Positions 1 through 55,971 of a stretch of 55,971 nucleotides of DNA are shown piece by piece (the stretch's first letter is position 1; the number at the start of each line of letters is the position of its first letter). The position numbers and the translations under genes were made by a program. The notes beneath the pieces are model-generated. The model searched no databases. It saw nothing but the letters and a program-made list of their open reading frames with translations, and was not told the origin of the DNA. Source of the stretch: Hydrurus foetidus (lineage: Eukaryota); NCBI GenBank assembly GCA_900617105.1, contig UYFQ01000143.1:62001-117971 (forward strand), given 5' to 3'.

Positions 1-2
1 AT

Positions 3-1478
<1,476 letters not shown>

Positions 1479-1600
1479 TTGCTGCTCTACTCCGGGAGCG
1501 TGAAGAACTCCCGGAGGTTCAACCCTTCGGACCCGAAGAGATTGACTACAAGTCGAAGGATACCTTCGCTCCTTTCCAAGACAATCCAACAGAGGATAAA

Positions 1601-2566: not shown

Positions 2567-2736
2567 CTACTCCTACTCCCTCATCCAAGGCACCAGCCCA
2601 AACACGTGGTTTAGTTGCTGCTCTACTCCGGGAGCGTGAAGAACTCCCAGAGGTTCAACCCTTCGGACCCGAAGAGATTGACTACAAGTCGAAGGATACC
2701 TTCGCTCCTTTCCAAGACAATCCAACAGAGGACAAA

Positions 2737-5529
2737 ATGTACCTCATCGATTTAATACAAATCGATGGTACCCCTGAACAAAAAGCAAGAATTAAAGCAA
2801 TTTGTGTTAAACACATAAAGCTATTCAACAACAAACTCGGACCAGAGCCCGCGCGAATTCCTCCCTTTGGGCTACCCGTACGGGATCCAGAGTGGAAAGT
2901 TTTCAAAAACCGCGTGGCACCCAGACCAACGTCTATACGAAAACAGGTCGAAATCCGCAAACAAGTTGACAGTATGCTTGAACAGGGTATAATAGTCAAA
3001 TCAGAGGCATCATACTACTCGCAAGTAACACTTGCGGCAAAGCCAGACGGTTCATACCGATTCTGTATTGACTATCGTCACCTCAACGACGCAACGGAAT
3101 CAGCAAGCTGGCCAATCCCTAATATTAAACAAATGTTAGCAAGATTAGGTTCACAAAAAGCAGACACATTCGGTGTAATAGACCTCACAGCAGGATATCA
3201 CCAAGCACCGTTAACTCTAAGTACACGTGTGTATACCGCTTTCATAACATTTATGGGCATTTACCACTTTACCCGACTACCTTTCGGACCAAAAAGAGCC
3301 CCCTCATATTTCCAAGAAATGATGGCCTCAATAGTCCTTTTGGGACTAATATACCAAATCTGTGAAGTATACCTCGACGATATCATCGTTTATGGTAATG
3401 GATTTGAACAATTCTGCGAACGATTAGAAATTCTATTTCAACGTCTCGAAGAGAAGAACATTTCACTAAAAGCCGCAAAGCTTAAGCTAAATGTGCAAAT
3501 AGTTGAATATGTTGGTAAACAAATATCTAAAGAAGGTATAACTATGAGTTCCAAAAAGATAAGAGGTGTGACCGACTTTCCTATGCCAAGAAAGACGACC
3601 GAACTAAGATCGTTTCTCGGACTCACCAATTATTTTCGGGATCATGTACCAAATCACTCCAACGTGGTGGCACCACTGCATAAAATGATAGATCACGCCG
3701 CGAAAAAGCAGTCAATGCTAATCTGGACAGATGACGCCGCAAATTCTTTTCAAAAGATAAAAGATCTAATTGCAAAGAGTCCTTTATTATATTTTATACA
3801 CGATACAGCGCCCATAACCCTTATGACCGATGCGTCGGATTACGGTATAGGCGGCTATTTGTATCAAGAAGTCGACGGAGAAAAACAACTCGTCGCTCTT
3901 GTCAGCAAGTCTCTTACCAAGACTCAACTGAAATGGTCAGTAATACAAAAAGAAGCCTTCGCGCTATATTATTGCTGTACTTATCTCGACGCACTGCTGC
4001 GAGATCGTAAATTCACAATCCTAACAGACCACAAAAATCTTACGTTCCTAGAAAAGGATAAAAACGAGATGGTCGGCAGATGGCGTATGGCCCTGCAGGA
4101 ACTAGAATATACGATAGGGTACATCCCGGGAAAACAAAATGAAATTGCTGACGCAATGTCTCGCCTATGTAAAAACAGAATGCCTCCTAAAACAGGAATA
4201 ATAGCAGCTATTCTGACACACAAACCAATGACGACCGAGCAATATAACCTAATTGCAACGTGCCATAACACGATAGTCGGACATGGTGGTGTACAACGCA
4301 CACTGCGTAATTTAAAGAAAACAAATAACATATGGCTGGGAATGCGTGACGCAGTAAAAACATTCATTAAGAATTGTCCTTGTTGCCAAAAGATGTCGGC
4401 GATGAAATATCCAATCAACGCCTACAGATACACAACGTCGACTTATAAACCAATGGAATGTCTCAACATCGACTTCATTGGCCCATTCCCCGATAAAGGA
4501 TATATCCTTGTTATGATCGACACCTTCTCAAGGTTTGTCGAACTCTACGCAACACCTGATGCAACAGCTAAATCAGCGTGCACAGCACTCGTAGAACACG
4601 TGGGGCGATACGGCTCACCGTGTATACTTCGATCAGATAATGGACCCCACTTCGCAAGCCACATCATAGATGAGTTTGTGAAAATTGTTGGAACAACACA
4701 CAACAAAATATTACCATACTGTTCAGAAGAAAACGCTATTGTCGAACGTATCAACAAAGAAATCAATCGCCACATAACCGCGTACGCATACGAACGGGCG
4801 ACTACGGAAAACTACGCGGAAATATTACCGTTTGTACAAAGAATACTAAATTCAACCGTAAATGACCGGATGAAAGTGTCTCCAGCACAACTCATCTACG
4901 GCAACGCGATCGACCTCGACGCGAACATCCTCCTTCCGAGAGATGAAATTGATTTAGATTTCGAATCACTCACACGGTCAACTGATAAAATGTTAACGTT
5001 GCAAGATGAACTCATCGAAATCACCGCACGTCTACTAAAACAATCCGACGACTTGCACAATGCACAACAATCTCCCAACATCACACAGTTCGGAGTCGAC
5101 ACATTTGTGCTCGTGCAACAAAGAACAACACCAGAAACACGCATGCACACACTGTGGCGTGGCCCAATGCGAGTTATAAGTCATAACTTCGCAGAGTATA
5201 CATTACTCGATCTGGTAACACACAAAGAAAAGTTGTACCACATGACTCAACTAAAACCGTTTCACTTTGATCCTACACATGTCGACCCAACTGACATTGC
5301 TCGTAGAGATTATCTGAAATTCTTCATAGAAGATATCCTAGACATGAAAGGAAACATAAGAGCATACAAATCGCTCACATTTCATGTGAAATGGCTCAAC
5401 TATACTCATGAACACAACACATGGGAACCATGGACACACATGCGTAAATCGCAAAAAGTACATGAGTTCTTAATTAAAAAGAACCTCAAACACTTGATAC
5501 CACGCGAATTCATCGCGAACTACCGTTAA
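2737..5529 (+). CDS. Gypsy Pol: RT, RNase H, integrase and chromodomain
   Basis: YLDD; RNase H TDAS/KEA/TDH/ADAMSR; HHCC zinc motif (H..GH...CPCC); integrase D(NIDF)-D(SDNG)-E(VER); GPY/F-like WRGPM; chromodomain FFIEDIL...VKWLNY...NTWEP. Confidence 0.95.
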   Translation: MYLIDLIQIDGTPEQKARIKAICVKHIKLFNNKLGPEPARIPPFGLPVRDPEWKVFKNRVAPRPTSIRKQVEIRKQVDSMLEQGIIVKSEASYYSQVTLAAKPDGSYRFCIDYRHLNDATESASWPIPNIKQMLARLGSQKADTFGVIDLTAGYHQAPLTLSTRVYTAFITFMGIYHFTRLPFGPKRAPSYFQEMMASIVLLGLIYQICEVYLDDIIVYGNGFEQFCERLEILFQRLEEKNISLKAAKLKLNVQIVEYVGKQISKEGITMSSKKIRGVTDFPMPRKTTELRSFLGLTNYFRDHVPNHSNVVAPLHKMIDHAAKKQSMLIWTDDAANSFQKIKDLIAKSPLLYFIHDTAPITLMTDASDYGIGGYLYQEVDGEKQLVALVSKSLTKTQLKWSVIQKEAFALYYCCTYLDALLRDRKFTILTDHKNLTFLEKDKNEMVGRWRMALQELEYTIGYIPGKQNEIADAMSRLCKNRMPPKTGIIAAILTHKPMTTEQYNLIATCHNTIVGHGGVQRTLRNLKKTNNIWLGMRDAVKTFIKNCPCCQKMSAMKYPINAYRYTTSTYKPMECLNIDFIGPFPDKGYILVMIDTFSRFVELYATPDATAKSACTALVEHVGRYGSPCILRSDNGPHFASHIIDEFVKIVGTTHNKILPYCSEENAIVERINKEINRHITAYAYERATTENYAEILPFVQRILNSTVNDRMKVSPAQLIYGNAIDLDANILLPRDEIDLDFESLTRSTDKMLTLQDELIEITARLLKQSDDLHNAQQSPNITQFGVDTFVLVQQRTTPETRMHTLWRGPMRVISHNFAEYTLLDLVTHKEKLYHMTQLKPFHFDPTHVDPTDIARRDYLKFFIEDILDMKGNIRAYKSLTFHVKWLNYTHEHNTWEPWTHMRKSQKVHEFLIKKNLKHLIPREFIANYR

Positions 5530-5731
5530 CCGGTAAAATCAAATCGATTAACTAAATCATAAAGATTCCTCCTAAATTTGATCCTCAAGGATTTTCGGGA
5601 GGTTTATTCAGTAAGGAACTTTCAGTTCTTAGTCTAAAATAGTTATTCAATTAGTTAGTTAGTTATTCATAGTTAGTATTTTGATGATGAATTTTGTTAA
5701 TTAGTACACCCCTTGAAAGAGAGAGGGGCAC

Positions 5732-5880
5732 TGTGACCCGAACACCCGTACGGGCTGTACGGGTACAGGCGTACGTCCGGTTCGGATCGAGGACGATCCG
5801 ATCCACACGATTCATTGCCATGATATCTGCTGTGTTTACCTGTAAGCTAACCACTTTGCTATCATAGCTTTAGCCCCACA
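5732..5880 (+). repeat. Putative Gypsy 3' LTR (right boundary uncertain)
   Basis: Starts TGTG right after the PPT; candidate end CACA at 5880. The 5' LTR is not in the window for comparison. Confidence 0.4.
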
Positions 5881-6603
5881 GCATCTTCCCTTTGTCCACG
5901 CGCCCTCAGACCTCCGCTCCCGTTGCCCTGAGACCTAGCAAGGCCACAATGACAAGGAAAAGAAATCAGTGCCAGAAGCCAAGAAATCAGGAAATGAGTA
6001 AAAAATTAGAGACTAGCATACAATCGCGTAGCCATCTATGCAGGCAGAACCATGAATTTACAAAGATTGAAATTGCAACGAGTATCTGGAAAGTAGAGGA
6101 GAAAAAAGAGGGGCGTAAAAACTCAAGGATCCTTTTTTTTAGTTCATCAATTAAAGTCGATCAAGAATTATACACTATATTACTTGTGATTCATTTTCCT
6201 TCGTGCAACTTCGTAGGATTCGACCAATTCGACTAGAAGATTCTAATCGAAGTGGATGACTTACCGCCACAAGAAAGCCTAAGATACATGGGGCAGTCCG
6301 TTATACACATCATAATATTATGCAGTACCGACTGTACGTTCGAATTTTGTCGAGAGTGTAGATATTACCAGAGCAGAATAAAGTGTCCACTTTTCGGTGG
6401 GAAAAAACTCAAATGAAGTGATGATAATAAGCACCCCACACGGCCCCACACCATACTAAAAAATAAAAAAATAAAAATGGCGAACGTTCCCCGGTTTTTG
6501 TATTTTTTAGTATGGTGTGGGGCCGTGTGGGGTGATCGATTTATCATCACTCCATCTGAGTTTTTCAAAGAAAAGGGGACATTTTATTTTTTATTCTGCT
6601 CTG

Positions 6604-6944
6604 TGTTGGAGATATCGTAGTTTATGACACGGACACAATCAGTGTACTTATGCATTCGTACGGTCGTACGGATTAATTTGTGTGTGTGTGTGTGTGTGTG
6701 TGTGCGTACATGCGTGACGACGATGTGTGGACCCGTGCATCGTCTCTGTACTTCAAGCGTAGTGTAGAATGTCTTTTGTTGTTGCGTTGAAAGGGACTCG
6801 GGGACTTCAGCAGGGATGAAGCACAGTCAATTAACAAGTGTTTACTGCCATCCAAGAGCTTATTTCACGAGTCCTGACCGAGTGACCTTCAACCACAGTA
6901 CAGCGAGAGGCGTACGTGTGGGCCGAACCGAAGATCCGTCAACA
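6604..6944 (+). repeat. Copia A 5' LTR (341 bp)
   Basis: TGTTGG...TCAACA. Matches 11886-12223 except for 3 nt in the T/(GT)n tract. Confidence 0.97.
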
Positions 6945-6954
6945 TAATTGACTG
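6945..6954 (+). promoter_or_regulatory. Non-tRNA primer-binding site of Copia A, complementary to LTR 6824-6833
   Basis: TAATTGACTG directly follows the LTR; its reverse complement CAGTCAATTA lies in the LTR. No TGG start. Confidence 0.7.
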
Positions 6955-6968
6955 CCACAGGCATTCCG

Positions 6969-9900
6969 ATGCCTCCCAAACGCGCCGCAGAAGCTTTCAA
7001 AAGTACAGAGGAGTGTATGCTTCAATACGGCAAGCACAACAACATTATCAAATGGAGAGAACACATGCAAACGGTTGTAACCGAACTATACGGAATAGTT
7101 GGCATGTTCTTCACCACAAATGTGAGATACGAGCTCCCGAGAGTTTCTTACAGGGATTACCCTGCAGACTCGTCATCGGAAAGCTCCAGTTCCGAAGAAG
7201 ATGACGAGATAGTTGAAGGTCAACAGGAACAACCGCCTCACCCAGAGACCGTGGCGTACGCCGCCGCGAGGCCTGCTCGCATCGCCGCCAGACAGGCGAG
7301 GAACGAGAGGAGGCGTAAAGCGTCAGAACGCTCTAGAGCGAAATTTAAAGAAGATGATTACATACAGAGAAAGAGGGACATCAAAACGCAGAAAGAGAAC
7401 GAACGTACGATGTACCCGATGATGTGGAAGCGCATGTCGCTGCTATCACAAAGTAGGGTGAGGGAGGAGGAAGATTTCAAGACCGCATATGACACCCTGG
7501 ACTGTGTCATGTTGTGGACGCTCATAAGGAGGACTCACCTCACACACATGTACGGGGGCGATGAGACACTGCAGGAGTACAACCAACACGAACAGGAGAG
7601 TAAGTACGGCTCTATGAGGCAAGGTGAGAGAGAGCACATTGTCACCTTCAAGAACAGATTCGATGAACAGGTGACCGCGAACGCTGCTGTCGGAATCGCC
7701 GCGGTGACAGAGTCGAAGCGAGCATTGGATTTCCTAGGGAAGCTCGACACTCGAAGGTACAAGGTCATGCTAGACGACATGAAGCATGACGCCTTACGAC
7801 GCAAACCAGGGGCGTTCCCAACCACACTCGCCCTAGCTTTCCACATCGCCTCAGAGTGGAATGACAGAGTCCCTGTATCCACACCCACACCAACACCTGC
7901 GGGTGCGAACGCAGCGTACGTGACCGAGGGAGTCCACGTCACAGCGGCCAAGGACCCGGAAAAGAAAGCGGGGAAAGCCGGAGGTGGCAGCAAGAAATCC
8001 TTAGCAGACGTCGAGTGCTACAAATGCGAAACAATGGGACACTACGCGCGGAACTGCCCACAGAAGAAATCGTCGTCATCGGAAAAAGTCCACGTCACGG
8101 TGGAAGAGTCAGACGAAGAATACGAAGGAGAGTCGAGCGAGTGGGGTGTAGCTCTTGTCACTGGCGACGAAATATGCTGCTTCTCCAGATTCGACGTGCT
8201 GTTAGACAACGAGGCCTCGCTCAACATATTCAATAACGCTGAGCTACTAACTGACCTGAGGAAGTCGCAGTCGACAATTCGAGTGAGCGGTATCCAGCAA
8301 GGAGGAGGAGTGAGCGTGGATCGGGAAGGGGAGTTCGGAGAGTTTGGCACGGTGTACTACAGTAGTTCGGCATCGGCGAACATCCTGTCTTTCGCGTCGC
8401 AGGTCGACTCCGGTGCGTCAATCAGATATGACCACCTGAGCGACTGCTTCACTCTGAGGCCGAAGAGCAGCACGAGGATCTATCGGTTCGGGAGAAAGCG
8501 AGTCGTAGGAAGCGAGGGGAGGTTCTACTCGTGCGATTGGAGGGATGTCGAGCACGACAAAGCGTTAGTAACTACGGTAGTTGAGAATCTGAAAGCATTT
8601 ACGAAACGAGAAATCGAGCAGGCGAGACGAGCTCGTGAGCTGCTCGCTAGGATGGGCTTCCCTACAGTGGAACAGGCGATGTCGATCGTGAACAGCGGAA
8701 GTAATTTCGACATTACTGCGAGAGATTTCCAGATCGCTGATGCGATATGGGGCAAAGATATAGCCTCTATAAAAGGGAAAACAGTGAAGAGAGCTACTGC
8801 TATCGCTGATATTACAGTCAGCACGAAATTAATGCAAAGGGATCAGGTGCTGTCTATCGACATTATGTTTATAGACAAACTAGCGATACTAGTTGGGGTA
8901 TCTACACCACTGGGACTAACTATTGCATATAGCCTAAACACAGCAGATCTAACAAAGCCAGCGAGGACAGCAGCGCAAGTAAAGATCGGGATAAACCATT
9001 TTATCGCAGTCCTCGCTGCGCAAAACTTCAGGACCTCCATAATCATGAGCGACGGAGAGGGGGCTGTCAAGAGTCTCATTGACGAGCTGGGAAGGCTCGG
9101 TGTGGAGGTTGACGTGAGTGGAGCCGGCGGCCACGTCGCTAGGATTGAGAGAAAAATTCGCATTGTTAGAGAACGGGTACGATGTCACGTAGCGTACCAC
9201 CTTCCGTTCACACTATCGACGGTGGGTATCGCCATGCTCGTACTGTACTGTATATCCAGGCTGAACTACGAACCGGCCGGATTACGGGAATGGGGCCCGA
9301 GTCCGCGTGAAGCATACATTGGTAGGAAGCCTGATGGTAAGAGAGACTTTAGATGCTCGTTCGGAGATTATGTGCAATGTACCGTTCCTAACACTGATTC
9401 AGGATTCAAGAGCCGAACCGAGGACTGTGTGGTTATGCTCCCCCTTGGAAACCGCACGGGCTCAGTGAGAATGCTTTCGCTCAGCACAGGAAGACTCGTG
9501 AACAGGGACCAATTCAGAGTGCTACCGATGCCCGAGTCAGTTATAAAGAGACTAAATGAACTCGCACATGCAGATGGTAGAGTAAAAGGGAAGGGTGATC
9601 TGTACGCACGGCCCACGTTGTACGAGCAGTACGGGAACGCTGCTAAGGGACTGCCTGACACGATGGAACCCAACGTCAACAACGGTGTGGATCCGTCGAT
9701 AGAACCTCTAGATGATGACCGTGAGACTAGAAACGAAGAGGCAGACAACGGTGACCAGCATCACGACAGTGGAGGAGAATTGGGTGAACAACAGTACGAC
9801 AACGGCGAAGCACCGAGCGAAGTAGATCCGAGGGACGACAGTGAACCATACGAGGAAGCGGTACAGGGCGAACAACCAGATGAGCGCGACAATGATATGG

Positions 9901-11819
9901 ATGATCTGGTCGATAGTATGAGCCGGATGCGAGCCGGACCAAGGAACCAAGTTGAAGATCCCACGGGGGGATTAGATGAGAGGGGTATACCGGAGGACTA
10001 CACATCGACAGACGGGACACGAGACGAGTACAGCGATGCGAGAGGAGCAGTGAGCCGAGCGACGGAGCTGCTCGCTGCACCTGCACCGCACTACGGGATA
10101 AGTAGACATGAGGTGATGGACTTCTTTAGGAACGGTGGTGGAACCGCGCTTCTAACGCGCAACTACGACGGTGACGGTGCAGACTGGGGAGACTATGTAC
10201 TTAACATATCGGTAAACGAAGCGCTGAGGACCAGGGGTGATGCGGCGCTGAGTGTGATTGAAAAAGAGCTAAAGCAGATGGTCGATAAGAAGGTGTGGGC
10301 ACCTGTCTCTGTGAGCGACCTATCAACGGAGGAGAAGCACCGAATCATCAGGTCAAGCATGTTCCTGAAGGAGAAATTCCTCGCGAGCGGGGAGTTCGAG
10401 AAGCTTAAGGCGCGGCTGGTCGCCGGAGGGAACCAGCAGGATCGAGATCTATACGATGATCTGTCGGCACCAACAGTTGCGACGAGCTCAGTGTTCACAC
10501 TACTGAGCATAGCAGCGCACGAGAATAGGATGATCACAGTGATTGACATCAGCGGCGCATTCCTCAATGCGGACATGGATACGGGACTAGCGGTGCACAT
10601 GAGGTTAGATAGGAACATGTCGAACATTATGACTAAATTGGCTCCCCATTACTCGCGCTTCACAGATCATAAGGGGTGCATAGTGGTGAAGCTGGACAAG
10701 GCACTGTATGGGTGTGTGGAGTCGGCTGCACTATGGTACGAGAACTTGAGAGCGAGCCTGTCCGATTTGGGATACTCACCCAATGCACACGACATGTGTG
10801 TCTTCAACAAACACGATGAGTACGGGGTGCAATGCACTATTGCGGTGCACGTAGATGATCTGATGATCACTAGTGCGAACGGCGAAATGATCGAGTCAGT
10901 GTCGGCCGGTCTGATAAAAAGGTATGGAGACATTACGAGGAAAAATGGACCTATTGTGAATTACCTAGGCATGGTATTCGACCTTACCACTGCAGGCAGA
11001 GCGCGAGTGTCGATGACGGGATACGTGGAGGACATGCTGAGGGAAAGCGGCACAACAGGGGGTGCAAGGACCCCAGCAACGGAGGGACTGTTCGATGTGA
11101 GAGACGACAGCGACATGGCGAGTGAGGAGCAGCGCGTGCGGTTCCACAGATTGGTAGCGAAAATGCTCTACCTGGCGAAGCGTGCGAGGCCCGACTGTCT
11201 GACTGCGGTGGCGTACCTTGCAACACGGGTAACACGGTGCAGCGTGGATGACCTTGGGAAGCTTGAGCGTCTGTTGAAGTATGTGAACAACACGAAGGAT
11301 AGAGGTATAGCGTTCGAGGCAGGTGCGAAAGGAATCGTCGTGAGTGTTCTCATCGATGCGGCGTACGGAGTGCATCCGGACGGGAGGTCGCATACGGGGA
11401 GCTGCGTGGTGATCGGAACGAGGGGTGCGGTGCACAGCAAATCGGCGAAGCAACAGATCGTCACCAAGTCGAGTACGGAGGCGGAGCTCGTTGCATTATC
11501 TGACTCAACTAACCAAGCGCTTCACATGAGACACTTCATTATAGGACAAGGACACGCGTGTGGACCAGTGACAGTGTACCAAGACAACATGTCATGCATG
11601 TCACTAATCGAGAGAGGGCGGTCAGCGGCGGAGCGGACGCGCCATATCGCCATCAGATACTTCTGGCTCAAGGAGAGGGTGGATCAAGGAGAAGCGAGAG
11701 TGCGACACCTGGGGACCAAGGAGATGTACGCGAACCTTCTGACGAAGCCGCTACAAGGTGCACAGTTCAAGTGCGAGAGACAGGGGCTTACGGGATGGGA
11801 TGCAACCACAGTAGTTTAG
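6969..11819 (+). CDS. Copia A Gag-Pol polyprotein (gag, CCHC, protease, integrase, RT, RNase H)
   Basis: CYKCETMGHYARNC; protease LLDNEAS; integrase SIDIMF/MSDGE/IERK; RT KARLVAGG, KALYG, HVDD; RNase H DAAY, SSTEAE, QDN. Integrase lies before RT, the Copia order. First ATG at 6969. Confidence 0.97.
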   Translation: MPPKRAAEAFKSTEECMLQYGKHNNIIKWREHMQTVVTELYGIVGMFFTTNVRYELPRVSYRDYPADSSSESSSSEEDDEIVEGQQEQPPHPETVAYAAARPARIAARQARNERRRKASERSRAKFKEDDYIQRKRDIKTQKENERTMYPMMWKRMSLLSQSRVREEEDFKTAYDTLDCVMLWTLIRRTHLTHMYGGDETLQEYNQHEQESKYGSMRQGEREHIVTFKNRFDEQVTANAAVGIAAVTESKRALDFLGKLDTRRYKVMLDDMKHDALRRKPGAFPTTLALAFHIASEWNDRVPVSTPTPTPAGANAAYVTEGVHVTAAKDPEKKAGKAGGGSKKSLADVECYKCETMGHYARNCPQKKSSSSEKVHVTVEESDEEYEGESSEWGVALVTGDEICCFSRFDVLLDNEASLNIFNNAELLTDLRKSQSTIRVSGIQQGGGVSVDREGEFGEFGTVYYSSSASANILSFASQVDSGASIRYDHLSDCFTLRPKSSTRIYRFGRKRVVGSEGRFYSCDWRDVEHDKALVTTVVENLKAFTKREIEQARRARELLARMGFPTVEQAMSIVNSGSNFDITARDFQIADAIWGKDIASIKGKTVKRATAIADITVSTKLMQRDQVLSIDIMFIDKLAILVGVSTPLGLTIAYSLNTADLTKPARTAAQVKIGINHFIAVLAAQNFRTSIIMSDGEGAVKSLIDELGRLGVEVDVSGAGGHVARIERKIRIVRERVRCHVAYHLPFTLSTVGIAMLVLYCISRLNYEPAGLREWGPSPREAYIGRKPDGKRDFRCSFGDYVQCTVPNTDSGFKSRTEDCVVMLPLGNRTGSVRMLSLSTGRLVNRDQFRVLPMPESVIKRLNELAHADGRVKGKGDLYARPTLYEQYGNAAKGLPDTMEPNVNNGVDPSIEPLDDDRETRNEEADNGDQHHDSGGELGEQQYDNGEAPSEVDPRDDSEPYEEAVQGEQPDERDNDMDDLVDSMSRMRAGPRNQVEDPTGGLDERGIPEDYTSTDGTRDEYSDARGAVSRATELLAAPAPHYGISRHEVMDFFRNGGGTALLTRNYDGDGADWGDYVLNISVNEALRTRGDAALSVIEKELKQMVDKKVWAPVSVSDLSTEEKHRIIRSSMFLKEKFLASGEFEKLKARLVAGGNQQDRDLYDDLSAPTVATSSVFTLLSIAAHENRMITVIDISGAFLNADMDTGLAVHMRLDRNMSNIMTKLAPHYSRFTDHKGCIVVKLDKALYGCVESAALWYENLRASLSDLGYSPNAHDMCVFNKHDEYGVQCTIAVHVDDLMITSANGEMIESVSAGLIKRYGDITRKNGPIVNYLGMVFDLTTAGRARVSMTGYVEDMLRESGTTGGARTPATEGLFDVRDDSDMASEEQRVRFHRLVAKMLYLAKRARPDCLTAVAYLATRVTRCSVDDLGKLERLLKYVNNTKDRGIAFEAGAKGIVVSVLIDAAYGVHPDGRSHTGSCVVIGTRGAVHSKSAKQQIVTKSSTEAELVALSDSTNQALHMRHFIIGQGHACGPVTVYQDNMSCMSLIERGRSAAERTRHIAIRYFWLKERVDQGEARVRHLGTKEMYANLLTKPLQGAQFKCERQGLTGWDATTVV

Positions 11820-11885
11820 TTAAATTATTACGGCAACATATGCGTGATGTGTGAATAGAAATGATTGTGATGTGGCATAGGGGTG

Positions 11886-12223
11886 TGTTGGAGATATCGT
11901 AGTTTATGACACGGACACAATCAGTGTACTTATGCATTCGTACGGTCGTACGGATTAATTGTGTGTGTGTGTGTGTGTGTGTGCGTACATGCGTGACGAC
12001 GATGTGTGGACCCGTGCATCGTCTCTGTACTTCAAGCGTAGTGTAGAATGTCTTTTGTTGTTGCGTTGAAAGGGACTCGGGGACTTCAGCAGGGATGAAG
12101 CACAGTCAATTAACAAGTGTTTACTGCCATCCAAGAGCTTATTTCACGAGTCCTGACCGAGTGACCTTCAACCACAGTACAGCGAGAGGCGTACGTGTGG
12201 GCCGAACCGAAGATCCGTCAACA
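11886..12223 (+). repeat. Copia A 3' LTR (338 bp)
   Basis: Direct repeat of 6604-6944. Confidence 0.97.
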
Positions 12224-43019: not shown

Positions 43020-43377
43020 TTCGTTGAAATATAGCAAAAACCAAAGTCGATGTCGCCTCAAATAAAACAAAGTACAAAGGAATCTTTCCCTTCACAAGTG
43101 TAAAGCGTCAGGTGACAGCAATTAACAATTTAACCAAGCACACTACTTTGCACTTCACTCTTGACTCATCACTCTTCAATCTTCGATCTTCAGTCTTCAG
43201 TCTTCACTCTTCACTCTTCACTCTTCACTCTTCACTTCCTATTGTGGCTGCTGCTGCTGGCTGTTGTACCTATCATACTGGGTATTCCGTAAGAGAGCCG
43301 CGTGTGTCACATAGCGACAAAATTAATGGTGTACTGAATTAACAGTTTGATGTACTGAATTCAATACTAAAGGTTAC

Positions 43378-43557
43378 GATTAGGATTAGGATTAGGATTA
43401 GGATTAGGATTAGGATTAGGATTAGGATTAGGATTAGGATTAGGATTAGGATTAGGATTAGGATTAGGATTAGGATTAGGATTAGGATTAGGATTAGGAT
43501 TAGGATTAGGATTAGGATTAGGATTAGGATTAGGATTAGGATTAGGATTAGGATTAG
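43378..43557 (+). repeat. Telomere-like (TTAGGA)n tract, ~30 perfect units
   Basis: 180 bp of uninterrupted GATTAG. Confidence 0.95.
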
Positions 43558-44028
43558 TCTATCTTCGGATTAGGATTTTGATCTCCAGATATCGAACATG
43601 CATTTTCAAGTCCATGCAGAAGAGAATCCGCTCATCAAAAAATAACAGTGAGATGCCACAATTGCGTTTTCTCGCATTGGCAACAACATGACTTATTCAC
43701 CGCGATTTTTGTGCAACTGTGTATCGAGTTATGGCTACTGTAAAAAAGAGCTATTTTTGACGATTTTGGAAAACTGTTCTACCAATAATAGGGGACTTGA
43801 CGGTCGTACCGTATAGTTTTCGGACCACAGACCTGACAAACGGGAACACTCTGTTCCTTTTCGTCCCCGCACGGGGAGCGGACAACCAGGCCAACGTTCC
43901 AGGCCAAAAGGCCAGGCCAAAATTGTAGTTCTTGATTAACATATGTAGCAGCGCGTGTGGCAGTGCCAGTAATTGCATGAAATCTACACTTAATCTCAGT
44001 CCGATAATTTCTCTCAATATTTTTTGCG

Positions 44029-47000
44029 ATGGAAGTCACTGCAGAGCTAATCTCTGCTGAAGCTGAAATTGGAATTTCTGTCTTTGAAGAGGCGAAGAAG
44101 AGAATAAATACTGCATTGAAGGAGTTTAAAGAAAACCATATTCCACATACTCGATCACCGTGTCTTCTCTTCGATGGTCTGGAAATGAACACAATGAACG
44201 ATTCAGAAATGAAGACGTTGCATCTTTTGTTCTTGCACTTATGCAGCACGCAGGACCAGAGAAGATGGTCGAGTAAAAGTGGCTACACATCCAAAGGCAT
44301 TCGCGCCTATAGAGGAAAGTGCTCGCGATCAGGGAGTCAGATGAATCTTCTCATCCATCGCAATGGGAGAACGTCATCAAAGTGCAAATGCAAGGCGTCA
44401 TTTACATTATTCAGTGATGGAAAAGTCTTGTTCAAAAGTGATCACTCGGAATTATGTCTTCCTGACCCAGATATGGGCAATGACGGTTATGTTTTCAACA
44501 CTGGACTGTCTCCATCCAAAAGGACATCCATCGTGTCAAATGTAGTCGACTTGCTTAGTGACTACGGCACTACACCTGCAGCAGCAAGAAAACAGATTGA
44601 ACGATCTCTTGTAAAGAGTGGTGTTACCGGATTTGCCGTAGGTTGGTTTCCTAGTGCAAAGCTCTTCCATTTGAATACATGATGATACGAGTAACAATAT
44701 TCACTTTAATCAACACCCCAGGTCAAGTATGTTCCCCCCCCCGCATCTTTCTCGAAAAGTATCATCATGAGTGCAAAGAAATCCTCGGGATTTTCTGCTA
44801 GTAACAACATCGACTCTCTACAAGACTTTCTAAAAAGCATTAAAGATCAGGACCTTCCTCACCGGATACTTTACGACAACGAAAATGACACAATTAAAGC
44901 AATAAGCTTCCACGACCCACAGTGGTTGCCAAGCAATGCTTCCAAGAATCAGCTACAGTTCAATGTAGCTGTCTCGGATGTGACATTTGGCATCACATCT
45001 CCACAGAGTGGGATTAGCAAATGGACCTTTATTACATTACTTACTCCTGGTCATGAAGCCTTCGTCGTTGTTGCATCTGCAATTACACATGAAGATACCG
45101 TTACTTTCATGAACGAAATGGATGTTCTGTTGGATATGTACCCCTCATTAAAACACGATAATTGGGTGCTTATAGTGGATGGAGATCCCGCTAAGTTTAA
45201 GGCGGCCAGGATAAAGTTTGAGCGGGTGAGAATCATTCTTTGCCTCTATCACGCAACTGAAAACATTAAGAAGCATTTTGGATACATGTGTCTGACGACA
45301 GCCACTGAGACTGCAGGTGAGATAAGATTCGCAATAAACATTACTGTTACTGCACTGCGCTCGTCACTTTATCGGCATGCTACTATTCTATTTTGGCAGG
45401 TCGTGTATCATCTTCTACATCAACAGATTCCTCAGCTCTGAAAGATTATTGGATACAATGTGACAGCTGCTGCAAGTGGAGAAAACTGAGCTCCAGCAGC
45501 GACTTTCCGGAGTCTTTCACGTGCGCCTCTGCCGGTCAGTTGGAGCCGTATAATACCTGTGATGCAGATGAGGAGGACAGAATCCGTTTTTCGGATGGTG
45601 CGCTGCATGATGCAAGTAGCAGTGAGGTACTGCAGTTTGATCGTTAATGATGACACTATAACTCACGTCCTACAAATCTTACTCCTCATCAAAATATCTT
45701 ATGTGCTGTAAAGGATTCTGGATTGATCACCGGACTGGATGCAGCACTCACAACTATATCGTGGCATGCTGTATGGAAGTATTTACGGACAGCACCATCG
45801 TTACCATCAGTACGGTCAAGGTTGGATGAAGTACTGGTCAAGTTTCCGAACTCCAAAGTTTATGTAGACTTTTTATGGCGTAATGTCGCAACTTGGGCAA
45901 CATGTGCTTTCACGTGGGAACTGGATTATGGTTTTCAGGCTAGCTCGATGCAAGAAGGTAAGATTACAATTATCATGACCTCAACTTTATTCTTAAACTC
46001 ATTTTTCTTACTATGTCATTTATTTAATTAAAACAGGTATTCACTCCACACTGAAGCACAATCTACGGAGAATGCTACTACCGCTTGATAGAATTTTAAA
46101 TTTCTTTAGGGAGTCGTTAATACGAAGAAAGCTGAATGTCGACAGGAAACATTCAGCAACATCTGTCAAGTCACTACTAGAAGCAACGAGGCGTCTAGGA
46201 TTCTCTAACTTTACGAAACATCTCACGGCATCACTTACTGATGAAGGAATCAAGCTAGCACTCGATCAATTTCAGAGGGGATTTGGGTACAAGGTAGAAA
46301 AATTGCAAAATTCAGTGGACATTGAAAGGGCCTTGTGCACATCTCAGGAGAAGAGGGGACCGTCGGCAGCGAGATTCCGGTGTCTTGTGAAAACTGTGAG
46401 CGAAAGTACTGATGTCGATTGTGTCTTTGCCATCGGTGAGTACTACCAGGTTACTTCCAGAACGATAAATGGCTCAGTGGATCTTGTGTTCATCAGTCCT
46501 AGCGGAGGTATAGCCTGCACATCTCCCTCTTACGCGAGATGGGGGATCCCCAGTAAACACATCTTTGCTCTATTCTATGATGGCAGTATTTCCATCAATA
46601 TGAAACAGTACTTTCATCCTGTATATCACTTGCAATTCATGAACAACATCGCTGTCGATTCAGTATCTCACTACACAGTCGCAAGTGACATACCCAACGG
46701 GAAAAGACAATCGATAGGCCCGTTGGTAAGCTGGAACTGGGCTCAAGGCGCATCTGATGCTGCATGGGAGTTGATCGGCTTGGGAGGAGAAGAATACCGA
46801 GGTGCGGCTCATCCAACTGCCAAATCAATTAGCGAAGCACCAGAAAGTAAAGCAGAAAAGACAAAGAAAGCCCTAAATTATGTCGGGCCTTTTATCAACA
46901 ATAGTATCGAGGAGAGCGAGATATTTTACAGATACTACGAGGGACTAATCAGTCGGTGAGTCGCTTCCTTTGCGATGCTTACAATTCCTCACTGATAAAT

Positions 47001-47209: not shown

Positions 47210-47370
47210 TTGTAGATTGCCTATTCTCTTGCTGTATTTAAATTAAGTTAAGTTCTGTCTCTGCTTTCAATTGATCAACGGAAATAATTTCGATCTAATT
47301 TAAAAAGAACATTGCCTCAACCACTAACGTCCTTTGGCCTTAATGAAAGCTAAAAAATTGATTCAAATCA

Positions 47371-50300
47371 ACTCATTTTCAACATACTAAATGACTACAC
47401 AACACACAATACGACTCACTTTCAACATACTAAATGACTACACAACACACATTACGACTCACTTTCAACATACTAAATGACTACACAACACACATTACGA
47501 CTCACTTTCAACATACTAAATGACTACACAACACACATTACGACTCACTTTCAACATACTAAATGACTACACAACACACATTACGACTCACTTTCAACAT
47601 ACTAAATGACTACACAACACACATTACGACTCACTTTCAACATACTAAATGACTACACAACACACATTACGACTCACTTTCAACATACTAAATGACTACA
47701 CACTTCAACTCACTTTCAACATAACACACTAACACACACACATACGACTCACTTTCAACATACTAAATGACTACACAACACACATACGACTCACTTTCAA
47801 CATACTAAATGACTACACAACACACATTACGACTCACTTTCAACATACTAAATGACTACACAACACACAATACGACTCACTTTCAACATACTAAATGACT
47901 ACACAACACACAATACGACTCACTTTCAACATACTAAATGACTACACAACACACAATACGACTCACTTTCAACATACTAAATGACTACACAACACACATT
48001 ACGACTCACTTTCAACATACTAAATGACTACACAACACACAATACGACTCACTTTCAACATACTAAATGACTACACAACACACATGACTCACTTTCAACA
48101 TACTAAATGACTACACAACACACATTACTGACTCACTCAACATACAAATGACTACACAACACACTTACGATTCCACTTTCAACATACTAAATGACTCTAA
48201 CAACACAATACGACTCACTTTCAACATACTAAATGACTACACAACATTACTTTTCAACATACTAAATGACTACACAACACACATTACGATACGACTCACT
48301 TTCAACATACTAAATGACTACACAACACACATTACGACTCACTTTCAACATACTAAATGACTACACAACACACATTACGACTCACTTTCAACATACTAAA
48401 TGACTACACAACACACATTACGATACGACTCACTTTCAACATACTAAATGACTACACAACACACATTACGACTCACTTTCAACATACTAAATGACTACAC
48501 AACACACAATACGACTCACTTTCAACATACTAAATGACTACACAACACACAATACGACTCACTTTCAACATACTAAATGACTACACAACACACAATACGA
48601 CTCACTTTCAACATACTAAATGACTACACAACACACATTACGACTCACTTTCAACATACTAAATGACTACACAACACACAATACGACTCACTTTCAACAT
48701 ACTAAATGACTACACAACACACAATACGACTCACTTTCAACATACTAAATGACTACACAACACACAATACGACTCACTTTCAACATACTAAATGACTACA
48801 CAACACACATTACGACTCACTTTCAACATACTAAATGACTACACAACACACATTACAATACGACTCACTTTCAACATACTAAATGACTACACAACACACA
48901 TTACGACTCACTTTCAACATACTAAATGACTACACAACACACATTACGACTCACTTTCAACATACTAAATGACTACACAACACACATTACGATACTCTCA
49001 CTTTCAACATACTAAATGACTACACAACACACATACGACTCACTTCAACATACTAAATGACTACACAACACACATTACTTCAACTCACATACATAAATGA
49101 CTACACAACACACATTACGACTCACTTTCAACATACTAAATGACTACACAACACACATTACGACTCACTTTCAACATACTAAATGACTACACAACACACA
49201 TTACGACTCACTTTCAACATACTAAATGACTACACAACACACATTGACTCACTTTCAACATACTAAATGACTACACAACACACAATACGACTCACTTTCA
49301 ACATACTAAATGACTACACAACACACAATACGACTCACTTTCAACATACTAAATGACTACACAACACACATTACGACTCACTTTCAACATACTAAATGAC
49401 TACACAACACACATTACGACTCACTTTCAACATACTAAATGACCACATTCACATACTTCCTTCTTTCAACATACTAACTGACCACAACACTAATACTCAC
49501 TTTCAACATACTAAATGACTACACAACACACATTACGACTCACTTTCAACATACTAAATGACTACACAACACACATACGACTCACTTTCAACATACTAAA
49601 TGACTACACAACACACATTACGACTCACTTTCAACATACTAAATGACTACACAACACACATTACGACTCACTTTCAACATACTAAATGACTACACAACAC
49701 ACAATACGACTCACTTTCAACATACTAAATGACTACACAACACACATTACGACTCACTTTCAACATACTAAATGACTACACAACACACATTACGACTCAC
49801 TTTCAACATACTAAATGACTACACAACACACATACGACTCACTTTCAACATACTAAATGACTACACAACACACATTTGACTCACTTTCAACATACTAAAT
49901 GACTACACAACACACAATACGACTCACTTTCAACATACTAAATGACTACACAACACACATTATGACTCACTTTCAACATACTAAATGACTACACAACACA
50001 CATTACGACTCACTTTCAACATACTAAATGACTACACAACACACACATGACTCACTTTCAACATACTAAATGACTACACAACACACATTACGACTCACTT
50101 TCAACATACTAAATGACTACACAACACACATTACGACTCACTTTCAACATACTAAATGACTACACAACACACATTACGACTCACTTTCAACATACTAAAT
50201 GACTACACAACACACATTACGATACGACTCACTTTCAACATACTAAATGACTACACAACACACAATACGATACGACTCACTTTCAACATACTAAATGACT

Positions 50301-51705
50301 ACACAACACACATTACGATACGACTCACTTTCAACATACTAAATGACTACACAACACACAATACGATACGACTCACTTTCAACATACTAAATGACTACAC
50401 AACACACATTACGACTCACTTTCAACATACTAAATGACTACACAACACACATTACGACTCACTCACTCAACATACTAAATGACTACACAACACATTATGA
50501 CTCACTTTCAACATACTAAATGACTACACAACACACAATACGACTCACTTTCAACATACTAAATGACTACACAACACACATTACGACTCACTTTCAACAT
50601 ACTAAATGACTACACAACACACATTATGACTCACTTTCAACATACTAAATGACTACACAACACACATTACGACTCACTTTCAACATACTAAATGACTACA
50701 CAACACACATTACGACTCACTTTCAACATACTAAATGACTACACAACACACATTACGACTCACTTTCAACATACTAAATGACTACACAACACACATTACG
50801 ACTCACTTTCAACATACTAAATGACTACACAACACACAATATACGACTCACTTTCAACATACTAAATGACTACACAACACACAATACGACTCACTTTCAA
50901 CATACTAAATGACTACACAACACACATTACGACTCACTTTCAACATACTAAATGACTACACAACACACAATACGACTCACTTTCAACATACTAAATGACT
51001 ACACAACACACATTACGACTCACTTTCAACATACTAAATGACTACACAACACACATTACGACTCACTTTCAACATACTAAATGACTACACAACACACATT
51101 ACGACGACTCACTTTCAACATACTAAATGACTACACAACACACAATACGACTACGACTCACTTTACACACACACATTACGACTCACTTTCAACATACTAA
51201 ATGACTACACAACACACATAACGACTCACTTTCAACATACTAAATGACTACACAACACACATTACGACTCTCTTTCAACATACTAAATGACTACACAACA
51301 CACATTACGACTCACTTTCAACATACTAAATGACTACACAACACACATTACGACTCACTTTCAACATACTAAATGACTACACAACACACATTACGACTCA
51401 CTTTCAACATACTAAATGACTACACAACACACAATACGACTCACTTTCAACATACTAAATGACTACACAACACACAATACGACTCACTTTCAACATACTA
51501 AATGACTACACAACACACATTACGACTCACTTTCAACATACTAAATGACTACACAACACATTACGACTCACTTTCAACATACTAAACGACTACACAACAC
51601 ACATTACGACTCACTTTCAACATACTAAATGACTACACAACACACATTACGACTCACTTTCAACATACTAAACGACTACACAACACACATTACGACTCAC
51701 TTTCA
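47371..51705. repeat. 43-bp tandem array, ~100 copies, inside the MULE
   Basis: Unit ACGACTCACTTTCAACATACTAAATGACTACACAACACACA(T/A)T. Some units are 48 bp with an extra ACGAT. No spacers. Confidence 0.97.
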
Positions 51706-51858: not shown

Positions 51859-52390
51859 TTAAGAAACAGATAAGCCAATGATTATGAGAATATCATCCAT
51901 CAAGTTCTTGGAAAGAGAATGCACTCGAACCAGCTTGGATATTTCATTGCTTCTCTGCAGTCCAAACAGCACCTCCATAGCTCTCTGAAAAGACTTCTTT
52001 GCCACTATTTTTTCCTCTTGGATTGTCCCATTGGTTCCGCGAAATTTCTACGCAAATGCAATTAATGTCAGTTGCAGGGTTGTGGTTTGTCACGTGCACG
52101 ATGACCTGCAAGTTCCATCAGCAACCGTAATCTCTTACCTACCGTCACATCCTCGTAAATTTTCTTGACCTGCTCAGCCTCCTGCTATCGAATTTTACCT
52201 GTATTGGCGACACAGGACAAACGTTCATCAACAAGAAAAGAAATCTACGGTGTGATCGGCGGTTACCTTGCCCCTTCAGGTAATCTATCGTTGCAAGTGT
52301 CGATGACATCGGCTGCAATTCGCCGTACGCCACAAAATTCTTTATTTTTACTATGCTTCGGTTGCATGCGAAGCTCAGGTATCATATCTG
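51859..52390 (-). CDS. Possible small spliced second MULE gene or relic, convergent with the transposase
   Basis: Exon ..QEAEQVKKIYEDVT|gtaggt joins in phase to exon 52047-51859 (KFRGTNG...GLSVS*). The 5' exons could not be joined cleanly. Confidence 0.3.
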
Positions 52391-52587
52391 TTTCCTATCT
52401 ATTATAGCATTTCTGAGTTGCCTGCGCATAACTTCGTAAAGACGGTGACACACCGACAAGATGAGATCAGAGATCGAGATGATCAAGAGTAGGGGAGTGG
52501 AGAGATGAGAGTTGAGAGTATAATAATGCATTAATCAAGAACTACAATTTTGGCCTGGCCTTTTGGCCTGGAACGTTGGCCTGGTTG

Positions 52588-52952
52588 TGTCGGAATAACT
52601 AATGAGCTAAGTAACCGTATAAGTTATTACGTATGTACATTTGATGACGTTTCGTACGTCGTGTGCCGTGTGGTGGTCGCTACTCCACCGGTCCAGGTTC
52701 CTTTAACCCAGGAACATCAAAAAGATGAAAGTGCACCATGTTTGACTGTGCGGGACAGCGCGATCTTTTCGCCTGTCTCCATGAACGATGTAAGCGATGT
52801 TGCATCGTTAATTACCTTAATACTCACACCAGCAGAGCTTTCGCCTTGAGCCCGGGAAAGTTGCTAGCGCACGTGTTGAACCTGCAGAAGGAGCGCGTAC
52901 CCAGGAAGGATATAGTCTTCCATTCAGTGGAAACTGATCCTTAGTTACGACA
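52588..52952 (+). repeat. Copia B 5' LTR (365 bp)
   Basis: Starts TGTCGGAATAACTAA exactly where the MULE TIR breaks, and ends TTAGTTACGACA (imperfect inverted ends). Confidence 0.8.
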
Positions 52953-52962
52953 TAATTAACGA
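52953..52962 (+). promoter_or_regulatory. Non-tRNA primer-binding site of Copia B, complementary to LTR 52805-52814
   Basis: TAATTAACGA follows the LTR; TCGTTAATTA lies within the LTR. Confidence 0.7.
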
Positions 52963-52989
52963 GTTGCTTTCGTTGCAACCAGTTGCAAC

Positions 52990-54108
52990 ATGAAAGGCAG
53001 AGGCCGAGGCCGAGAACACAATACCGCAGGCGGTCGAGCAAACCCTGCCAACGGTGGCAGAGGGAATGCTGGCCGCGGTGCGAAGCCTCCACCAAGGACA
53101 GGAACGGTAGCCGCGATCGGCGCATTCCTGGATCTCGGAAGAGAGATGAACCATGGCAGCGTCAGCGCATGGATGAGGAAGTTCCGCGAGTATACTCGCG
53201 CGAACTATAAGTCCGATATCTCTGAGATATTCGGCAACGAGGGCATACCGGGTGATTACCCGCAATATGTCGCTCCAGCGGATATAGCAGCCGATGCAAA
53301 CTTCATGGTAGCGACCAAATGGAAGCGTGCACTGGAGCTGTATGATAAAAACGTCCTGACCTTGAGAGAAGACCGAAAGCAAGTCTTCGGACTCATGCTA
53401 GGTCAGATTAGCGAAGCGTCGAAAGCGACGATTCGAGAAGCTGAAACGGGCCTTGCAGCTATGACTGCAGAGGACCCGCTTCTATTGCTGAGAGCTATAA
53501 TCCTGACTCACCTGAGCGACCCAAGACTAGGGGCCGACCAGAACCTACTGAGAGTGAGAATGGCGTACGAAACGGTTAAGATGGAACCGAACGACGTCCT
53601 AAAATATTATTATCAACGATTCAAAGCCCTTAAGGCAGGATACGAAGATACAATGCGGGCGTTAGGGGTCATGCCCGACTATAACGAGGCCATGACCGCA
53701 CACAACGAGATACTCACGGGAATGAAGTTCATGAATGGACTGAACGCCGGGTACCGCCATTACGTAGAGTACTATGAGCACAGGCTCAAGGACTGGCCGG
53801 ACACGTTAGAGGACGCGTACCTCGAGATGGCGAAGGTCACGCCAAAGAAACCGGCTGGCACTTCCCCACCCAACCAGACCAACGTATTTGCGACAAAAAC
53901 TGCTGGGGGTGAGAAAACGGCTGGCACTGACACTGGTAAAGGGAAGAGCTCTGGGAACGGCGACAGAGGGAAGGGTGGGCGTACGTCGTACGGCACCCGT
54001 CCCGGAAACTGCAATAAGTGCGGTGAAGCCGGACACTACTCCTATGAGTGTACGGCCAAGGATAGCCAAGCGGGTGCATCAGCACCCAGTGGAAAGTCGG
54101 TAAACTAA
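52990..54108 (+). CDS. Copia B Gag
   Basis: 372 aa with zinc knuckle CNKCGEAGHYSYEC. WPDTLEDAY parallels Copia A FPTTLALAF. Confidence 0.88.
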   Translation: MKGRGRGREHNTAGGRANPANGGRGNAGRGAKPPPRTGTVAAIGAFLDLGREMNHGSVSAWMRKFREYTRANYKSDISEIFGNEGIPGDYPQYVAPADIAADANFMVATKWKRALELYDKNVLTLREDRKQVFGLMLGQISEASKATIREAETGLAAMTAEDPLLLLRAIILTHLSDPRLGADQNLLRVRMAYETVKMEPNDVLKYYYQRFKALKAGYEDTMRALGVMPDYNEAMTAHNEILTGMKFMNGLNAGYRHYVEYYEHRLKDWPDTLEDAYLEMAKVTPKKPAGTSPPNQTNVFATKTAGGEKTAGTDTGKGKSSGNGDRGKGGRTSYGTRPGNCNKCGEAGHYSYECTAKDSQAGASAPSGKSVN

Positions 54109-54193
54109 GTAAGATACATTATTCCTCACCTGTACACTCACCTGCACACATCCACACACACACCCTATACATACACTCATCGATCCTCCATGT

Positions 54194-54524
54194 TTGGCTG
54201 ATTCCACTAGCGGAATTGAAACATGTGATCATATTGTTTTTAGTGCCAATACATGCAATATATATAACATGATTAGAAGTAGACACATCCTGCTTGACAC
54301 ATGTGCTGGTGAGTCGGTTTTCAACGACTCATCCCTGCTGTATAATGTTGAACACGCACCCACACCTATGATTGTTAGCGGGGTGAATCCGAAAGGAAAA
54401 CCGCTGATAATCAAGAAACGTGGGGTGTCGGCGTTCGGCAACGTGTACTATAGCCCTGACTGTGCTGGTAACATATTGTCTTTTGGCAATGCTGTACGTG
54501 ACTGTACTGATGTTAAGTACTTAC
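54194..54524 (+). pseudogene. Copia B Pol N-terminus (protease), interrupted by a nested insertion
   Basis: ILLDTCAGESVF...VSGV...NILSF. Similarity to Copia A is lost after DVKY. Confidence 0.8.
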
Positions 54525-55971
54525 TGTCAGTCCAGCATATTCATGCATGATCTGTTAGCATAGTTTCATCTGTAGATTAGCATTCACATGTCACAAGTAG
54601 TGTAGCGCTTCCTCACCCAAAACACCGCCATACACTGTTGTGTACATACGCTCATCGTTCTTCTAGCGATATCCCCCTTCGGGGCCATCACCAAGCATCC
54701 GGTTTTTCACCACCAAGCATCCGGATTCCCACCAGGTATCCGGTTTCCACCAAGCATCCGATTTCATGAGCAGCGAGGGTTCCGCCCATTGCTCAATCGC
54801 CAACTTGAATATTCGCTGAATATGTTTCCACTTCGGCGATCACCATTTCATGCACAATGGATGCTTTGCTCTGCTTCTTTGATGGTTGTCTTCTCTGATA
54901 TCATCGCCAGTTGTTTTACTACTTGATCGTTGTAAGTAAACACGTCTTCCGAGACCACTTCCATCAGCCAGTCTTTCCTTTGCGCTTCCGCAGCCAACAG
55001 GTAGCTCGCTTCACTCCACAGTCTGACTCACATGGTAGCGATTGCATAGAAAGTTCAGCAATCATCGATATAGTATCAATATATCAACGGTATCTCAACA
55101 CAACAGATATCTCAAGTCGGCCATGATGCTACGATCGTCCGACAACACAGACCAAAACAACGAGGAATATCATGACCCAACTGGGCTAGAGACTCCCAGC
55201 CGCGCCCAGCTGCCGCGCATGCTCTCCATGACCCTCGCAGAGTTCGATCAACGTGTCGCCGAGGCCATAAGAGCCCAAACACAAAATTTGGTCACCAGCT
55301 CGACGGCAAATCGTCAAAATCCTTCGACACCAAACCGACCTCGACGAGGCTCCCATGCAGAGGAAGCCACGCCACCGCGCCAAACTTCGGCAGAAGTTTC
55401 AGCACATGGGCTATCATATAATGCCGCTCTGGAATCCGTTTTGGAGCTAAAACGGCTAAAACTCGATCTCGTTCTGACGACCTCTTCAGAAATGGATAGC
55501 ATCAAGCAAAACCAGATCACCACAACGACTGTGGGATCTAACAAGCGCTTCAAAGCTCTTGACAACATGCTCCATGTCGTTGGACTCTACCCAATGGCGA
55601 TGGGCACGCGTCGCGAGCCAATCCCAACGAGACTTAACCCATCAGGATACTCGGAGCCTACAACATCAGAGAATTTGGACGGCACCTTCAATTATGTACC
55701 CGCCGACGATGTTACACGATGGGCCCACGACAAGAAACGTTTATATAACGTCATGTTAAACGCTTTCAGCGAGTCTACCCACTATCTATGTGCCGATTCC
55801 TTTACCTCTCGCGATGGGATCGCTATTTATAAACGTATGCACAAGCACTACTACGGACATACTGAAGCAGACATAAACCGACTTAGGCGACTTCTACAAA
55901 ACTTCAAGGGCTCCACGGCTACTTGTTTTCAAGAGGATTTAGTGAGGTTTACAACGTTAATGACAGAAATT
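54525..55971 (+). mobile_element. LTR element C (probably Copia), 5' portion, nested in Copia B
   Basis: Putative LTR TGTCAG(54525)...CACA(55032) containing four CACCA(A/G)G(C/T)ATCCG-like repeats, followed by a tRNA-type PBS TGGTAGCG at 55033. Confidence 0.7.
55123..55971 (+). CDS. Gag-like ORF of element C, runs off the window (absent from the ORF track)
   Basis: Open from ATG 55123 to the window end. WAHDKKRLYNVM...RDGIAIYKRMHKHYYG resembles Copia-type gag. Confidence 0.7.
   Translation, partial: MMLRSSDNTDQNNEEYHDPTGLETPSRAQLPRMLSMTLAEFDQRVAEAIRAQTQNLVTSSTANRQNPSTPNRPRRGSHAEEATPPRQTSAEVSAHGLSYNAALESVLELKRLKLDLVLTTSSEMDSIKQNQITTTTVGSNKRFKALDNMLHVVGLYPMAMGTRREPIPTRLNPSGYSEPTTSENLDGTFNYVPADDVTRWAHDKKRLYNVMLNAFSESTHYLCADSFTSRDGIAIYKRMHKHYYGHTEADINRLRRLLQNFKGSTATCFQEDLVRFTTLMTEI

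Follow-up and report, generated by a model that had tools for sequence, protein, structure and literature searches.

In Tf1 of Schizosaccharomyces pombe, the initial 11 nucleotides of the element's RNA pair with the primer site and an RNase H cut follows (PMC7175516), in a system that needs a three-duplex structure including two flanking helices (PMC10085805); for Tf2, a start site and a self-primer have been described (PMC5341516). Predictions of self-priming extend to Tcn1 and to the TAR lineage of Copia elements (Houba, Osr-1), and in plants self-priming has been called by a criterion of 10-bp complementarity to the LTR (PMC6317226). In addition, hairpin priming has been discussed as ancestral (PMC3601003).

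The window analysed here, a whole stretch of 55,971 nucleotides from Hydrurus foetidus to which all coordinates refer, holds two Copia-type elements, A and B, with a related arrangement. As in Tf1, Tf2 and the Tf1/sushi group that includes Tcn1, the site adjoining the LTR is complementary to an LTR-internal stretch at the (here predicted) RNA start, over 11 bases in Tf1 and 9 to 10 in the elements described here (PMC7175516). However, the Tf1/sushi elements are Ty3/gypsy chromoviruses, whereas A has a Copia-type reverse transcriptase (RVT_2) and no chromodomain match; the three-helix “pretzel” of Tf1 was detected in none of six elements here; and self-priming is experimental in Tf1 but only predicted for the lineage of A and B. 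The TAR lineage of plant Ty1/copia (Houba, Osr-1) is likewise Copia with predicted self-priming, called by LTR complementarity of at least 10 bp (PMC6317226). TAR is a plant lineage, whereas the reverse transcriptase family of A groups apart from other Copia-type reverse transcriptases, in a tree that held no TAR reference; the self-priming of A and B would have an origin separate from that of TAR. The fungal GalEa elements, with their Conserved Hairpin Site, are also Copia elements that lack a tRNA site and keep conserved pairing in its place, but the partner there lies in the internal region, with no complement found in U5, and here it lies inside the LTR (PMC5445492). Finally, the CoDi elements of diatoms also belong to Copia, and at most one stop or frameshift separates their gag from pol, as here; the words “primer binding” and “tRNA” are absent from the main text of that article, and its supplements might describe CoDi primer sites (PMC2806351).

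Element A is complete, with both LTRs, a CTCTG target-site duplication and one open reading frame with a zinc knuckle and RVT_2. Its features are as follows:

6604 to 6944, plus strand: 5' LTR of A (TGTTG...CAACA), target-site duplication CTCTG
6824 to 6833, plus strand: predicted self-primer of A, CAGTCAATTA
6945 to 6954, plus strand: primer-binding site of A, TAATTGACTG
6969 to 11819, plus strand: single gag-pol reading frame of A, with the Copia-type reverse transcriptase (RVT_2) in its C-terminal part
11886 to 12223, plus strand: 3' LTR of A, with AGGGG and TG in front of it

RVT_2 covers residues 1141-1371 (E 9e-27) and is, with the zinc knuckle, the only Pfam match of A; neither an integrase nor a chromodomain was matched. 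In A we find the marks of Ty1/copia elements (TG...CA LTRs, target-site duplication, polypurine tract and RVT_2); in B, the corresponding end features are visible in the 5' LTR only, and public contigs supply the polypurine tract. In its protein motifs, A presumably resembles diatom Copia elements (CoDi-like). A purine run, then TG, then TGTYR stands before the 3' LTR of A (11879-11890) and recurs in the relatives L001, L002, L005, L010 and L037-L040, which makes it lineage-wide. TG also precedes both 5' LTRs in the window, and this two-base spacer appears to resemble integrase-trimmed ends.

The window holds further repeats. A Gypsy-type element at positions 1-5900 has RVT_1, RNase H, an integrase and a chromodomain; its 5' LTR lies outside the window, and about 1.1 kb of its pol is present twice. 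An interstitial, telomere-like (TTAGGA)n array lies at 43374-43559, with a MULE transposase fragment nearby at 44710-45441, and a long array of a 43-bp tandem repeat (47230-51700) lies upstream of B.

Of element B, a Copia-type LTR retrotransposon, a truncated 5' end is present, which comprises an LTR, gag and the start of the protease and is interrupted by a nested element, C:

52588 to 52952, plus strand: 5' LTR of B (TGTCG...CGACA, 365 bp); start from polypurine-tract loose ends, probable end from the sole CGACA and the inverted termini
52793 to 52804, plus strand: 12-mer directly upstream of the B motif, a possible core-promoter element, identical at 9 of 12 positions to its counterpart in LTR A
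52805 to 52814, plus strand: predicted self-primer of B and predicted RNA 5' end, TCGTTAATTA, from pairing and folding
52953 to 52962, plus strand: primer-binding site of B, TAATTAACGA, abutting the end of the LTR, from pairing; motif and site are spanned by contigs of the public runs X3 and X8
52990 to 54108, plus strand: gag of B, with a zinc knuckle and its own stop codon
54113 to 54524, plus strand: protease reading frame of B (LLDTCAGES), interrupted by C; 34% identity to the protease of A and 48% to the protein P0064
54525 to 55032, plus strand: LTR of the nested element, C, with the continuation of B and the polypurine tract of C visible in loose ends at 54524 and 54525
55033 to 55040, plus strand: tRNA-type primer-binding site of C, TGGTAGCG, with no pairing to its own LTR

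Because the argument depends on where LTR B begins and ends, four public runs were mapped onto 51900-55971. Contigs from three of them (X1, X3, X8) depart from the window just before 52586 and carry a polypurine tract ending in AGGGG that resembles the tract before the 3' LTR of A. Given that AGGGG and TG precede the 3' LTR of A, the same tract at B places the start of LTR B at the TGTCG of 52588. Its inverted repeat, CGACA, is found once in 52588-53100 and ends at 52952, where we place the probable 3' end of the LTR; the resulting length of 365 bp compares with 341 for A and 299-351 for the relatives. Thus, of the boundaries assumed in an earlier sequence-only reading of this DNA, the start is now fixed by the loose ends, and the end is supported by sequence features rather than by the 3' LTR of B, which lies outside the window. 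Motif and primer site are spanned together by contigs of X3 (52624-53156) and X8 (52773-53053), which differ from the window at 4 and 2 positions, respectively; among the differences listed between public contigs and window, 40 of 416, none falls in either motif. The start of C, first guessed at 54511, was moved to 54525 on the evidence of loose ends in the public contigs.

B has no reverse transcriptase, and its assignment to Copia goes through the homology of its gag and protease to A and P0064. In the segment 54090-54524, a stop follows directly after the zinc knuckle of B and the protease lies in a different frame, whereas A is one reading frame. Most full-length gags of the B family end at the same place, and longer fused forms of the B gag numbered 0 among 7,573 candidates, which is weak evidence. 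Since the gag-protease spacer shows small indels in public contigs, stop readthrough, frameshifting and splicing are all possible.

In both elements, the 10 bases that follow the LTR have an exact complement of the same length within the LTR, oriented such that its 3' end could be extended into U5, and the primer site is flush with the LTR end. This length reaches the 10 bp by which self-priming is called in plant elements (PMC6317226). In B, TCGTTAATTA (52805, starting 148 nt before 52952) and TAATTAACGA (52953) each occur once in the window; in A, CAGTCAATTA lies at 6824 and 12103 and TAATTGACTG at 6945. The sequence-only reading had reported these two 10-mers of B and their perfect pairing, and both are confirmed. 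Dinucleotide shuffles held such a complement in 14 of 20,000 cases for LTR B and in 4 of 20,000 for LTR A. Within the window, 92 of 55,561 positions have a complement in the preceding 365 nt, and among the 4,855 positions that follow a CA only six do, two of which are A and B. From A to B, three of the ten positions change on both strands and the pairing remains perfect, as had been noted before.

That reading had further called B independent of A, with no evident similarity between the two LTRs, and on these two points we disagree. The gags share about 22% identity (E 6e-4, in a small database), the B gag matches relatives of A with E values down to 7e-10, and the protease frame is 34% identical to A and 48% to P0064. 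Taken whole, the two LTRs show no significant similarity (an equally high score is reached by 415 of 1,000 shuffles), yet their best local alignment sets both motifs in register. The distance from LTR start to motif is 217 nt in B and 220 nt in A, and the 12 bases upstream of the motif match at 9 of 12 positions, as do 35 of 116,137 random 12-mer pairs, for a 12-base stretch picked after looking. Based on the gag and protease homology, the shared polypurine-tract and LTR-start signature, the motif distance and the upstream 12-mer, B is a distant relative of A, and the pairing is one inherited trait rather than a trait of two origins. Given that the motif positions are homologous, the three paired changes are true covariation.

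Element C had been put forward as an internal control. It does carry a tRNA-type site (TGGTAGCG at 55033), which matches its own LTR over 4 bp only, a length reached by 1,897 of 2,000 shuffles; it is not a matched Copia control, in that its reading frame has no significant Pfam match and no similarity to A or B. An Atlas search with this frame reached 0.89-0.90 for unnamed clusters and at most 0.78 for gag-like families, which is a lead only. Together, C and L044, an outgroup Copia element that is also of the tRNA type, pair with their own LTRs over 4 and 3 bp. The primer site of L044 (3260-3280, pol on the plus strand, LTR boundary approximate) is GGTTATAGACCC, which resembles the half-tRNA-Met type.

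Protein searches yielded 65 relatives of A and 42 of the B gag. DNA of relatives came from one metagenome locus (a scan returned 1 locus from 77 stretches), five genome-bin contigs and further contigs of one such bin. Viral contigs scanned with alignments of the B gag and of the A polyprotein gave no relative among 115 and 130 candidate stretches, respectively; a pattern search for the polypurine-tract signature gave 27 matches against 24 in a reversed control and no new junction, and three further searches in the bins G001-G003 likewise gave no new junction. G001, filed as an actinobacterium (L002-L004, L010, L037-L055), contains eukaryotic LTR retrotransposon contigs by the dozen (73 matches), and one each is present in G002 and G003; they appear to be contaminants of prokaryotic bins. 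Five relatives have an LTR together with a primer site, namely L001, L038, L039 and L040, as pol-LTR-gag junctions that reflect tandem copies or a collapse in assembly, and L003, in which the LTR is partial. Seven others (L002, L004, L005, L006, L010, L037 and L041), in which LTR and primer site are not both of usable length, were left out of the count. The LTR ends of the relatives were set by eye from TGTTG/CAACA termini, with three candidate ends in L040 and two in L038.

Perfect pairing from the first base after the LTR extends over 9 bp in L001 (2 of 2,000 shuffles), 10 bp in L003 (2 of 2,000), 9 bp in L038 (15 of 2,000) and 9 bp in L040 (6 of 2,000); by the same test, A and B pair over 10 bp each (0 and 1 of 2,000). 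In total, six of the seven testable family members (four of five relatives plus A and B) pair over 9 to 10 bp with their own LTR, through six different sequences, and pairing begins at the first base after the LTR in all six. The view that the pairing is not due to chance, covaries and speaks against one fixed tRNA primer is thereby upheld and extended. An AATTA/TAATT core, which had been described as kept, is indeed kept between A and B but is not a property of the lineage, as the relatives pair via AAATACGGT, TAAGAATTAA, TAAGATTAA and CAATTTAGT. When the site of one member was set against the LTR of another, 40 of 42 combinations reached 7 bp or less; the exceptions, at 9 to 10 bp, are the site of A with the LTR of L038 and the site of L038 with the LTR of L040, more than shuffle rates suggest, and the specificity of the pairing is tempered accordingly. 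TGG after the LTR is absent in all seven testable members, Rfam has no match in 52400-55200, and no tRNA genes were found in the window. In four of six related proteins with N-terminal extensions, a CA/TAAT junction can be read roughly as far from the start of gag as expected, a weak reading because the codons are ambiguous.

The seventh member, L039, pairs over 3 bp only (reached by 1,735 of 2,000 shuffles), and a near-match would need 3 mismatches in 9 at each of the first four offsets. In this relative (1538-1865, pol on the plus strand), the LTR is followed by GTCTATAAGT, which is neither self-pairing nor a TGG site, and its branch is long. Two quick trees of RT-RNase H, with 46 and 22 rows and SH-aLRT as the sole support measure, set the family of A apart from other Copia-type reverse transcriptases as a group with support of 98 and 100. 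L001 falls beside P0064, the proxy protein through which B is placed, and L003, L038 and L040 fall beside A, such that the six pairing members span both main branches. L039 finds no firm placement; a one-clade test with L039 outside the pairing group gave a p-AU of 0.044, for a grouping picked after seeing the tree.

In folding predictions, whether the duplex forms depends, in some members, on where the RNA begins. For B, RNA starts 0-5 nt ahead of the motif give a mean helix probability of 0.97-0.98, against 0.01 for a start 60 nt earlier; A, B and L040 as a set reach 0.93-0.98 with starts no more than 5 nt from the motif and fall to about 0.01 with starts 60 nt earlier. Folding of L001, L003 and L038 shows a weak start-site dependence or none. 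The helix is short and A/T-rich. Two flanking helices of the Tf1 type are not above chance in any of the six elements (lowest p 0.045 of 24 values), by a simple test that could miss short helices.

Together, we consider these observations likely to reflect Tf1-like self-priming in the Copia lineage of B, with the element's own RNA in place of a tRNA. Against this reading stand the 3-bp pairing of L039, the two long cross-pairings, the lack of Tf1-type flanking helices above chance, the shortness and A/T-richness of the helix, the weak or missing start-site dependence of L001, L003 and L038, the LTR ends set by eye and the seven loci left out of the count. Based on the findings that the helix is predicted to form when the RNA starts near the motif and that the 3' end of the primer would then lie beside the LTR end, transcription is predicted to start at or just before 52805. 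The first 10 bases of the RNA would fold onto the primer site, and, by analogy with Tf1, RNase H would cut after base 10 and free a 3' end that reverse transcriptase would extend into minus-strand strong-stop DNA. We speculate that plus-strand synthesis then recopies the primer site from the primer itself; if so, the paired changes between members would arise in one step and not by two separate mutations.

The pairing might instead be conserved for another job: it could close a 5' leader structure that serves packaging, dimerisation or the control of translation, or mask the site before another primer, such as a tRNA half, a small RNA or a protein, is loaded. Such a role would fit the lack of Tf1-type flanking helices, the existence of a member without pairing (L039) and the fungal GalEa Copia elements, which keep a hairpin at the primer site with a role reported as unknown (PMC5445492). 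We nonetheless find it unlikely, in that the pairing starts in all six positive cases at the first post-LTR base, where the 3' end of a primer must sit, and the six sites are too different for one host RNA. A second possibility is that a separate host tRNA or tRNA half primes each family, as half-tRNA priming is known in several Copia lineages (PMC6317226), and that the LTR motif is a by-product, for example, of a short A/T-rich promoter word present in both orientations. The two long cross-pairings do show that words recur among these LTRs; however, a shared word accounts for the TAATT core of A and B but leaves the three covarying positions unexplained (by a simple count, about 3 in 10,000), and L001 pairs through an entirely different sequence, so we regard this explanation as very improbable. 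Chance, or LTR ends picked to yield pairing, is the least credible, in spite of the absence of the 3' LTR of B from the window and of relatives from collapsed assemblies with ends set by eye, since A is bounded on the evidence of two LTRs and a target-site duplication, LTR B has a single candidate end and takes its start from public contigs, and shuffle rates multiply across six elements.

Self-priming thus remains our preferred reading. Its mechanism is already known, and the lineage of A and B is likely a further predicted Copia case, beyond plant TAR; we found no report of self-priming in diatom-like or stramenopile Copia elements in the literature searched, which left most subscription papers outside. 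A broader proposal seems to us about as apt to be right as wrong: that a deep Copia lineage of aquatic microbial eukaryotes primes itself without tRNA, separately from Tf1/sushi and TAR, through a minimal duplex of 9 to 10 bp without flanking helices, with primer and site changing together by recopying.

For annotators, self-priming would explain the absence of a tRNA primer site in such elements, and for experimenters, the natural covariation supplies ready-made swap material, such as the primer of A with the site of B. The lineage of A and B also bears on which came first in LTR elements, tRNA priming or self-priming. If the proposed mechanism is true, these elements would escape control by tRNA supply and by tRNA fragments.
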